Part shown: one piece after another, positions 28,458 through 35,885 of the stretch
How the letters are laid out: each line of letters starts with the position of its first letter
Position numbering within the stretch: the first letter of the stretch is position 1
Assembly: GCA_965238075.1 (NCBI GenBank)
Contig: OZ250173.1
Coordinates: forward strand, 1,664,001-1,728,000
Length of the DNA stretch: 64,000 nucleotides
Direction of reading: 5' to 3'
DNA from: Candidatus Entotheonellaceae bacterium
GTDB taxonomy: Bacteria > Tectomicrobia > Entotheonellia > Entotheonellales > Entotheonellaceae
Program-made: the position numbers and the translations under genes
The notes under the pieces: model-generated
What the model saw: the letters and a program-made list of their open reading frames with translations, nothing else
Told to the model about the DNA's origin: nothing
Database searches by the model: none

Positions 28458-28522
28458 TTGACAGAGCTAAGGAAAGGCGGTATTTTTACCGTCACCTTCA
28501 ATACGAAGGCTGTTCTTTGAAA
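28458..28522 (+). promoter_or_regulatory. rrn sigma70 promoter and boxA antiterminator
   Basis: TTGACA(28458)-17 nt-TATTTT(28481); boxA TGTTCTTTGAAA at 28511. Confidence 0.75.
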
Positions 28523-28616: not shown

Positions 28617-30180
<1,564 letters not shown>

Positions 30181-30266
30181 TAAGGAGTCTTAGCTTTCCT
30201 GTACATGCAGAAAGCGAAGGCTGAAAGTTTGTCTTACTCTCGAATGCGAATCTCGTACGATTTCTA

Positions 30267-30278
30267 TGCTCTTTGACA
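30267..30278 (+). promoter_or_regulatory. Spacer boxA in a short tRNA-less ITS
   Basis: TGCTCTTTGACA in the ~140-nt ITS, followed by the 23S processing-stem arm. Confidence 0.7.
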
Positions 30279-30319
30279 ATGACATGATGCGACATCAAGT
30301 CTGTTTGTAGTGTTATAAG

Positions 30320-33319
<3,000 letters not shown>

Positions 33320-33435
33320 TCTTGTTTTATACTACGCTGGCTTGACGCATCATGTCATTGTTAAACCATGATTCACCCAAACCAACTGCGGCAGAGATCT
33401 ACCTTAACTTGTTGGCCTGTAACCCTGGAGGCACG

Positions 33436-33984
33436 ATGAGCTATGCGAAGTCTGTAAGTCTGCCACTCGTTGTCCTGGCTCTATTGGCGACAAGCTCCAT
33501 TGCCCAAACCGACAAATTGCCGGACATCACGAATACACGAGTCCACTCACCTATCGTTGCGTCATCCGGACAGCCGTCCAAGGGGCAGTTTGAGGACATT
33601 TCGAGATCTGGCGTGAAGGTCGTGATAAACCTCGCTCCGAAATATTTGCCAGACTCCATAAGGAACGAAAGGAAGCTGGTTCGCTCTGAGGGCATGGAGT
33701 ACTTCTTCATTCCGGTAGATTGGGACAGACCCTCGCAGAATAATGTCGACAAATTCTTGACGGCAATGGATAAAGTACGCGGCAAGCGCGTGCTAGTACA
33801 TTGTTGGTTAAATTACCGGGCGTCGGCGTTCGTATATCTCTATCGAGTCTTACGTGAGGGTGCTTCCCAGGATGAAGAATACAAAATTCTCGAAGAGATC
33901 TGGGATTACGACAAGGACTACGCGTTGAAAAAGGTCCCCCACTGGAGAAAGCTCCTAACAGTGGCCTTGGAGAGGCACCAGTAG
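33436..33984 (+). CDS. Exported protein-tyrosine-phosphatase-fold (DUF442/BLH-like) protein located in the 23S-5S spacer
   Basis: RBS GGAGG at 33427, signal peptide, SSGQP, VINLA, YFFIPVDW and VLVHCWLNYRASAF (CX4R loop). Confidence 0.82.
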   Translation: MSYAKSVSLPLVVLALLATSSIAQTDKLPDITNTRVHSPIVASSGQPSKGQFEDISRSGVKVVINLAPKYLPDSIRNERKLVRSEGMEYFFIPVDWDRPSQNNVDKFLTAMDKVRGKRVLVHCWLNYRASAFVYLYRVLREGASQDEEYKILEEIWDYDKDYALKKVPHWRKLLTVALERHQ

Positions 33985-34003
33985 CGAAGTGAAGCGACCA
34001 AAA

Positions 34004-34090
34004 GCAATCGCCCGGTCAAAGTTCTAGCCCGATGCGCTTAGTGTCGCTACGCTCCTGCGCCCGCGGCTCAAAACAGAAGCGTTCGATAGC
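34004..34090 (+). repeat. Degenerate attC-like imperfect palindrome
   Basis: Outer arms gcaatcg/cgatagc around GTTCGAT at 34081. Inner arms ttctagcccgatgcgc/gcgcccgcggctcaaaa. Loop gtcgctacgctcc. Begins ~20 nt after the stop codon. The AAC of R'' is not intact. Confidence 0.35.
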
Positions 34091-34120
34091 TACGTCACCG
34101 ATTGATACTTGTTCTGAATT

Positions 34121-34237
34121 TTCGGCAGCTATAGCGAAGGGGCAACACCCGTTCCCATCCCGAACACGGAAGTAAAGTCCTTCAGCGCCGATGGTACTGC
34201 ACGGGTCACTGTGTGGGAGAGTAGGTCGCTGCCGAAA
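34121..34237 (+). rRNA. rrf: 5S ribosomal RNA
   Basis: TTCGGCAGC...CCCGTTCCCATCCCGAACACGG...GATGGTACT...GGGAGAGTAGG...GCTGCCGAA. Confidence 0.97.
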
Positions 34238-34457
34238 TTCTCCCCTCCCATAATTCCTTCACCGCACACCGCAGTCTCTGCATGTTCTTGTAAGCCTTCC
34301 TCCTCGCCTTGTCTGATCGAAGAGTCCGCAGACCACGAATGCCGGGATTGTTTGGGTCGCATTGCGGGTGTTAGACTTTCGGATACCAATCCTTTCCCCT
34401 ATAGCATCGGTCGATTTCCACGTGCAATCGGAGCATGGATGCCACGTTGACGGCTAC

Positions 34458-35885
34458 ATGCCTGACGCAAAGATGGCAGAAACGGTCTCCCTTCCAACCT
34501 GGGTAGTGGTAGTTGCCGGCGCGCTTTCACTTTGGGTAATTCTTGACCGCCTGATTGTTCCAAGCACCCGCTGGCTTTTCGGGCGGCGTGTCAGTCGTGT
34601 GATTAATGAACTCAATACTCGCCTGCAACTGCAAATACCTCCTTTCCAACAGACGAAACGACAGGTCCTTATCGATCGCCTCACGCACGATCCCAGGGTA
34701 ATGGAGTCGGTCGAGGCCGAGGCGCACAAGTCCGCTGTGGCGCGAGAAGTTCTGATCCGCGAAGCCGGACGCCATGCGCGTGAGATTGTCCCGTCGTTCA
34801 ACGCCTACGTCTATTTTCGCATTGGATATTACCTAGCGCGGCGCATTCTGCAATTTCTCTATCGTGTCCGCCTAGGCTATGCCGACGACGAAGCGCTGGC
34901 CAGAATAGAGCCCAACGCAAGTGTCGTGTTTCTCTGATGAATCACCGCAGCCATACGGACTACATCATCGTCGCCTATATGGCCACGAACCGCGCCACCT
35001 TGAGCTATACGGTGGGCGAATGGGTACGCACCTGGCCGCTGCTTCAGTCGTTGATCAAATCTCTCGACGGTTCTTCGTGCGTCGAGAATCCGACAATCCT
35101 CTCTACCGCCGAGTACTGGCTCCCTACGTTCAGATGGCGACGGCCGGTGGTGTCGTGCAGGCGTTCTACCCCGAGGATCAGTTTACCCGCGACGGGTATC
35201 TCCAAAAGCCAAGGTTCTGTCTCATCAACTACATGCTCTCGACGTTCGACCCCAAGGGCGAACGGGATCTCGTGTTCATCCCGGCGAGTATCAATTACGA
35301 TCGAGCGCTGGAAGATCGCACCCTGGTCGGCAAACTCGACCCGCGGGCCATTCCACGTAGCGGGACGTATACTGTCGCCCTTTCTCAGGTTCCTCGGCCA
35401 CAATGTCAGACTCCTGCTGGAACAACGCTGGTATCGCTTGGTTATGTCTGTGTCGATTTTGGAACGCCGATTGCCATGCGGTCATACACCGAACGCACCA
35501 AGATCGATTTTCGCCTTTTGGACTTAGAAGATCGTTTTGAAGCCGCAGAGCGGCTTGGCAGTGAGCTGTTCGGCGCCATCGCCATAACCATTCCGGTATT
35601 GCCGGTGCCACTCATCGCCACCGTGTTCTTGCGCCATCCTCACATGGCCATGAGCGAATTTGAGATTAAGGCACATGCTCATGCGCTCATCAACGACCTT
35701 GAGCAGCGCGGGGCGTACGTCCATATCCCCAGGTCAGACCACACGCAACCACAATGGGGCTTTGGATGGTGGCACTGCGGCACTTGGTGCAGGAAACGGA
35801 CGGTCTCTACCGGGCGAGCGATACCGAACACAATATGCTGCGCTACTACGCCAACTCGATAGCTCACTTCCTGCCCAAGCCGTGA
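34458..35885 (+). pseudogene. Glycerol-3-phosphate acyltransferase (PlsB/PlsC-like), multiply frameshifted
   Basis: Motifs EIVPSFNAY, MNHRSHTDY (HX4D), FFVRR, FYPE, INYDR and YYANSIAH lie in different frames, implying several indels (~34935, ~35070, ~35370-35440, ~35740). Confidence 0.8.

Follow-up and report, generated by a model that had tools for sequence, protein, structure and literature searches.

A foreign-looking gene for a predicted exported DUF442-type enzyme between the 23S and 5S rRNA genes of the sole rRNA operon of a Candidatus Entotheonellaceae bacterium

How did a protein-coding gene come to lie between the 23S and 5S rRNA genes of a bacterium with a single rRNA operon, what does it encode and is it expressed together with the rRNA? 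These questions are raised by a locus in a 64,000-nt stretch of Candidatus Entotheonellaceae DNA, hereafter the window (assembly GCA_965238075.1, contig OZ250173.1, positions 1,664,001 to 1,728,000 of the forward strand; coordinates below are those of the window). Few transcription units are as strong or as tightly regulated as the rRNA operons, whose spacers are commonly regarded as set aside for processing signals and tRNAs. We consider it rather probable that the sole rRNA operon of this genome has received a foreign insert of about 720 bp that is not of integron origin, and that its gene, for which an exported DUF442 enzyme is predicted, is read through as part of the pre-rRNA.

The rRNA operon, as located by Rfam, is complete and lies on the + strand, with the 16S gene at 28617-30179, the 23S gene at 30320-33321 and the 5S gene at 34121-34237. 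The genome is assembled as one contig of 3.35 Mb, in which the 16S, 23S and 5S genes and the 23S-5S spacer each occur once. The features of the operon are as follows.

28458..28486, + strand: promoter-like site of the rrn operon, TTGACA-17-TATTTT, 5′ of the 16S gene, assigned by consensus match alone
28617..30179, + strand: 16S rRNA, 1558.5 bits, one copy in the genome
30258..30314, + strand: 5′ arm of the 23S processing stem, with a perfect core at 30276-30291
30268..30279, + strand: boxA-like GCTCTTTGACAA, at the 5′ foot of the 23S stem
30320..33321, + strand: 23S rRNA, 2863.5 bits, one copy in the genome
33328..33375, + strand: 3′ arm of the 23S processing stem, with a perfect core at 33346-33361
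34121..34237, + strand: 5S rRNA, sole copy in the genome

Since the 23S gene ends at 33321 and the 5S gene starts at 34121, the spacer spans 33322-34120 and measures 799 nt, in line with the roughly 800 nt given by an earlier reading of the letters alone (the sequence-only reading), as opposed to about 43-77 nt in the six relatives across the class that carry both genes on one contig (G001, G004, G005, G006, G012 and G013). The 23S processing stem is intact despite the extra length: the perfect pairing claimed in that reading was recovered, 30276-30291 being exactly complementary to 33346-33361, and the best computed duplex of the 23S flanks joins 30258-30314 with 33328-33375 at -48.3 kcal/mol. 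The boxA antitermination signal invoked there fared less evenly. With the boxA consensus, a boxA-like match was indeed found at the stem foot, the one match in the window, but at least one match also occurred in 28 of 100 shuffles; as the number of matches is no better than chance, only the position at the foot of the 23S stem counts. The 16S-23S spacer in which the motif lies (30180-30319, motif at 30268-30279) is just 140 nt long, and the Rfam scan found no tRNA gene in it.

Comparison with related genomes supports an insertion in the 23S-5S spacer, immediately beyond the 23S stem, as the source of the additional sequence. Five congeners were compared, of which one, a 290-contig draft (G003), gave no rrn match; the other four all lack 33378-34099 from their assembled operons, and in these the 23S trailer and the pre-5S stretch adjoin or nearly so. 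In the alignment with G001, G004 and G005 the 722-nt segment 33378-34099 is without counterpart, and the empty sites hold a single TCGCC/TCACC-like or CACC-like copy of the pentanucleotide that occurs twice in the present operon.

33373..33377, + strand: TCACC direct repeat, left copy, on the target side, placed by alignment to empty sites in G001, G004 and G005
33378..34099, + strand: insert of 722 nt, the right TCACC counted in, with a GC content of 51.7%
33985..34094, + strand: non-coding 3′ tail of the insert, without attC features
34095..34099, + strand: TCACC direct repeat, right copy, from the alignment with the empty sites

The insert is separated by 2 nt from the outermost pair of the 23S stem, which agrees with the position just outside the processing stem that had been proposed from the letters. 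It occurs once in the genome, is without terminal inverted repeats (the best inverted repeats, in the 3′ tail, are 72-75% complementary) and without a transposase, its sole ORF being the enzyme, so that the marks of an IS element or a MITE are absent. An IS200/IS605-like insertion, placed 3′ of a pentanucleotide and carrying subterminal hairpins, was also considered and rejected, as neither end folds into a hairpin. The 5-nt TCACC repeat fits either a circular piece that entered by a single crossover at a short common site or a small target duplication, and is weak evidence for any single mechanism of insertion. An Rfam scan of 33300-34300 at E up to 10 matched only the 5S gene.

The same point of the spacer carries an unrelated 232-nt insert in the congener G002 (L011:1965-2195), which has 11-nt terminal inverted repeats and 42 matches in the G002 genome and is therefore a MITE; its presence there indicates that the spacer site tolerates inserts. 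The two ends of this MITE-like element are often found about 800 nt apart in the G002 genome, a spacing that points to an IS-like parent element some 850 nt long.

Misassembly is common at rRNA operons, and a chimeric join of the rRNA genes with an unrelated gene would produce a similar picture. The junctions recur, however, in other data. At least part of the stretch is contained in nine studies, and four runs from four of them were compared (X2, X4, X9 and X18), the matches being contigs rather than single molecules and X9 and X18 being RNA libraries. Both junctions are spanned, with 0 differences, by contigs of X2, a run that may be near the source sample and hence may not be independent; the left one is also spanned, with 2 differences, by an X4 contig. 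The X9 contigs extend over 33299-33777 and 33809-34143, and the X18 contig, which covers 33368-34143, has a 12-nt in-frame insertion after 33913 that corresponds to four extra residues of the protein P0001. Next, the N-terminal 28 residues of P0003, a JGI protein, are the same as the read-through of 33352-33435, so this variant has the same left junction. One or both junctions are thus bridged in contigs of four studies and in at least three sequence variants. The sequence-only reading had named an absence of reads across the junctions as the mark of a misassembly, and contigs of all four runs do bridge them; taken together with P0003, this leaves an assembly artefact scarcely credible.

A second contig of X4 joins 33362 to 34095 via GAAATCTGCT, which is the empty site as found in G005, so both the filled and the empty form co-occur in one sample. 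The RNA contigs have no cover beyond about 34270 in X9 and beyond 34143 in X18, where the DNA runs continue; since the two stop at different places, nothing is drawn from their 3′ stops.

The coding features of the insert are listed below.

33427..33431, + strand: Shine-Dalgarno sequence GGAGG, 4 nt before the ATG, read directly
33436..33984, + strand: gene for a 182-aa protein of the DUF442/PTP fold, assigned from the ORF, homology and the model
33436..33504, + strand: signal-peptide-like N-terminus, residues 1-23, judged by eye
33799..33819, + strand: HCWLNYR active-site loop (C123, R128), residues 122-128, aligned to HCLANYR of 3gxg

An intact ORF in the orientation of the rRNA genes and with its own ribosome-binding site had been described at this place, and the ATG at 33436, the end at 33984 and the GGAGG at 33427-33431 are all as described. 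An alternative ATG at 33352, which would open a 210-aa frame, was rejected: its position is within the 23S stem, and the extension is missing from the homologues at the 46-64% level, for which reasons 33436 is taken as the start. The GC content of the ORF is 50.3% as against 62.3% for the genome, below that of 99.8% of the 2,719 stop-to-stop frames of at least 300 aa, which bears out the AT-richness noticed earlier.

The protein is absent from all five congeners, and three relatives within the family have homologues of 36-41% identity that are of a shorter kind and without a signal peptide. Among species representatives, an alphaproteobacterial MAG (61%) and a Parasphingorhabdus (53%) come closest, with gamma- and betaproteobacteria next; a single-protein scan of genome and metagenome contigs gave no relatives, the matches having come from an alignment-based scan. 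The low GC content and the proteobacterial nearest relatives together make the gene look foreign. An rRNA gene within 4 kb was found at none of the 17 homologue loci scanned (41 were found), so the rrn location is peculiar to this lineage. The insert matches the homologue loci inside the coding region alone, with no similarity in the flanks, so that none of them stands out as the donor locus. At about 2.3 kb from the homologue of the alphaproteobacterial MAG (L024:6779-8413, - strand) there is a D5_N/DUF5906/Toprim primase-like gene, a type of neighbour that suggests a mobile island.

A PDB search with the protein sequence retrieved 3gxg, a DUF442 protein of Shewanella putrefaciens, with an E-value of 1.2e-29 over residues 25-176. 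The AlphaFold model has a pLDDT of 86.1, with residues 1-25 below 50 and a helix at 9-20, and it superimposes best on 3gxh (target-normalised TM-score 0.88) and then on small PTP/DUSP enzymes including TpbA. The phosphatase- or sulfurtransferase-type fold that had been anticipated is accordingly specified as DUF442/PTP, from the sequence match to 3gxg and the fold match to 3gxh, and the predicted protein shares with these the H-C-X4-R loop; the CX4R motif had likewise been read correctly as HCWLNYR, at residues 122-128. All five Pfam matches fall under the gathering scores, PF04273 with 15.7 versus 26.1 and PF22741 with 25.3 versus 27; some homologues carry hits to PF04273/PF22741, and DUF442 is the JGI name for the homologues P0003, P0010, P0037 and P0039. 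Among close variants of the protein, C123 and R128 are conserved in ten of the ten intact ones. The signal peptide seen earlier also appears to be present, as a Sec-like N-terminus judged by eye alone (K5, a hydrophobic run at 9-18 and SIA before Q24, M1-A23), and 19 of its 23 residues are invariant in the same ten variants.

The favoured assignment from these comparisons is an exported sulfur transferase or phosphatase, with neither preferred. For the first activity, the DUF442 domain of Blh performs sulfane sulfur transfer in vitro (PMC5823870). Blh is a cytoplasmic protein with DUF442 fused to a dioxygenase, whereas the present protein is stand-alone and has a signal-peptide-like N-terminus. 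For the second, TpbA is a PTP-fold phosphatase of the periplasm (PMC4409338). The TpbA of Pseudomonas aeruginosa resembles the present protein as an exported small enzyme of the PTP fold, with a model-based fold match at E 3.7e-07, but the identity between the two is about 16%. Its loop is presumably the canonical one, longer than HCWLNYR. Beside the homologue of Parasphingorhabdus (L025:4668-7820) lie HPPD and two genes, one with a rhodanese domain and one for a dioxygenase of the TauD family, and these two may be taken as a weak hint at a sulfur-related role.

The origin put forward in the sequence-only reading was that of an integron cassette captured at a secondary GTT site. The insert does resemble cassettes in being one short ORF of cassette size that has no evident promoter and would be driven from a promoter upstream, and the GTTAAAC at 33360-33366, 12 nt before the junction, fits GTTRRRY, which we take to be the attC core consensus. 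The insert differs from them in lacking an attC and a GTT junction, and the genome in lacking IntI. First, the attC-like palindrome of about 85 nt that had been described after the stop codon was not confirmed: the single-stranded DNA fold of 33980-34105 has z values of 0.34 and 0.22 on the two strands, being equalled or bettered by 117 and by 115 of 200 shuffles, and the inverted repeats are no better than the 72-75% complementarity given above. No R″(RYYYAAC)...R′(GTTRRRY) pair occurs on either strand of 33322-34120. Next, the two core-like sites exist, GTTGGCC at 33411-33417 and GTTCGAT at 34081-34087, but the former lies 33 nt inside the insert and not at a junction, and the latter lies 7-12 nt inside and does not fit GTTRRRY; the actual junctions are the TCACC copies (33373-33377 and 34095-34099), with the GTT sites 7-33 nt away. 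Finally, none of the eight matches to the integron integrase model TIGR02249 in the genome is above the cut-off of 265 bits, the best having 87.6 bits. As to homologues in integron arrays, for which a search had been recommended, the neighbours of the two closest homologue loci (of 41) are ordinary or primase-type rather than array-like, and none of the 17 loci scanned is near rRNA genes. The cassette origin has thus been abandoned, and we regard it as very improbable. Outside the window, at G000:C1:872945-873309 (L017 and L021), the genome contains integrase-like fragments with an in-frame TGA, possibly the remains of a broken tyrosine recombinase gene.

With the non-integron insertion retained, the next point is whether the gene is kept for its product. 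The insert may be a tolerated passenger that sits in a harmless spot, is transcribed merely through lying 5′ of the 5S gene and encodes a useless protein in slow decay; the unrelated MITE at the same spot in G002 (42 genome matches) is in keeping with such tolerance. A cluster look-up returned 12 close variants, of which ten are intact and distinct, 182-186 aa long and 90-99% identical, which speaks against decay. The other two (P0003 and P0008) are frameshifted, as decay would predict, although these frameshifts may be errors of assembly as well as real, and in P0002 the His122 that precedes the catalytic Cys is replaced by Tyr. Indels within the ORF are in frame (+12 and +3 nt), whereas the flanks have indels of 1, 1, 1, 4 and 1 nt. 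The listing of differences, which leaves 32 out, holds 31 within the ORF; 13 of these are synonymous and the other 18 nonsynonymous, which is more synonymous change than a uniform mutation model would give (P 0.013) and corresponds to a crude dN/dS of about 0.4 for the differences listed. On the side of the passenger, the within-clade changes do not significantly avoid the family-conserved columns (9/55 vary versus 23/93, P 0.30), and in the X18 variant the ORF has diverged about as much as the non-coding flanks. Overall, we read the variant sequences as a sign of moderate purifying selection on the ORF, and a mere passenger seems unlikely, though it retains some weight.

The relation of the gene to rRNA transcription follows from the layout of the operon. 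The scan of the + strand over 33320-34120, which covered sigma-70-type sites, found neither a promoter-like nor a terminator-like site, and the earlier statement that no promoter is obvious is borne out by 0 sigma-70-like matches on that strand of the spacer. The gene shares its strand with the rRNA genes, the interval from the 23S to the 5S gene has neither a promoter nor a terminator motif, and the sole 5S gene is downstream. Since 5S rRNA is indispensable and its only copy lies 3′ of the insert, a polymerase that starts at the rrn promoter would have to transcribe the gene on its way, and by such read-through the message of the gene would become part of the pre-rRNA. Contigs from the RNA libraries link the ORF to both neighbours, the 23S trailer in X9 and the 5S gene in X9 and X18, with the proviso that DNA carry-over is possible in these libraries and that contigs cannot show one molecule. 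Taken together, the gene is probably copied into RNA together with the rRNA. In a computed fold of the spacer with 5S, the region of the Shine-Dalgarno sequence and ATG has a mean unpaired probability of 0.25 versus an average of 0.41, so that it is paired more than the rest, a point against the proposed translation.

Alternatively, the gene and the 5S could be independent units, the insert having brought its own promoter or the 5S gene having gained one, so that the gene and the rRNA would be on separate transcripts. The insert has 58 nt of its own sequence upstream of the gene, and the promoter scan was confined to sites of the sigma-70 type, which leave room for such an arrangement; against it stand the 0 promoter-like or terminator-like matches in the spacer and the RNA-library contigs that span from the 23S end to the ORF (X9) and from the ORF to the 5S gene (X9 and X18). 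The stretch before the 5S gene is also conserved in the insert-free congeners and hence is not new. We hold independent transcription to be improbable. This conserved stretch, TTGATACTTGTTCTGAATTTT at 34102-34120, probably belongs to the signals of the 5S precursor, and no promoter-like -10 element was found at a usable distance after it. A co-oriented 191-aa ORF with a hydrophobic segment (34362-34937, + strand) follows 125 nt 3′ of the 5S gene, and no terminator-like site was found between the two.

Returning to read-through from the rrn promoter, a model can be proposed in which about 720 bp of foreign DNA with a single gene entered at the base of the 23S stem in the sole rRNA operon of one sponge-associated lineage, probably through a one-off non-integron recombination at the 5-nt TCACC site, and would have been inherited by the lineage since. 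A polymerase starting at the rrn promoter (site 28458-28486) would read through the gene to reach the 5S gene; the cut of RNase III at the 23S stem and the maturation of 5S might then free a fragment bearing the ORF, which could be translated from its own GGAGG and ATG. The protein would be exported by the Sec route to the periplasm or beyond and may act there as a sulfur transferase or phosphatase. That the rRNA operon serves the gene as an expression platform, as suggested in the sequence-only reading, is plausible in view of the single 5S gene, the lack of a promoter or terminator motif and the bridging RNA-library contigs. A stronger version holds that the sole rRNA operon is a selected platform on which the gene of an exported enzyme, gained by horizontal transfer, is transcribed as fast as the rRNA and under growth-rate control, its mRNA being carved from the pre-rRNA by RNase III at the 23S stem and by the cut at the 5S 5′ end, with 5S maybe stabilising the 3′ end; this version is offered tentatively, as a possibility toward which we lean less than halfway.

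Protein genes in rRNA operons are known as homing-endonuclease ORFs in rRNA introns and as ORFs in 23S intervening sequences, and expanded or unlinked rrn loci are known as well. The present locus shares with the intron and intervening-sequence ORFs a protein-coding sequence within an rRNA transcription unit, but here the gene is that of an ordinary exported enzyme, as predicted, lies outside the mature rRNAs and is without a mobility gene. Mixed operons of stable RNA and mRNA are represented by tufB behind tRNA genes in E. coli, to which the proposed cutting of an mRNA from a stable-RNA precursor would be similar; the mRNA of such operons is, however, distal to the stable RNAs, whereas the present gene stands between two rRNAs and 5S synthesis needs read-through. 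No ordinary enzyme gene described between 23S and 5S was found in the literature searched.

What appears to be an ordinary enzyme gene has been kept by a natural lineage in the 23S-5S spacer of its sole operon, which shows that this spacer can hold 0.7 kb of coding DNA with the supply of 5S not lost. The locus provides a natural case for the questions of whether translation is possible for an mRNA that comes from the rRNA polymerase in its antitermination-modified state and how such an mRNA is freed from the pre-rRNA. It also bears on long-read amplicon work that follows sponge symbionts by the length of the rRNA operon or ITS, since filled and empty sites co-occur in one sample.
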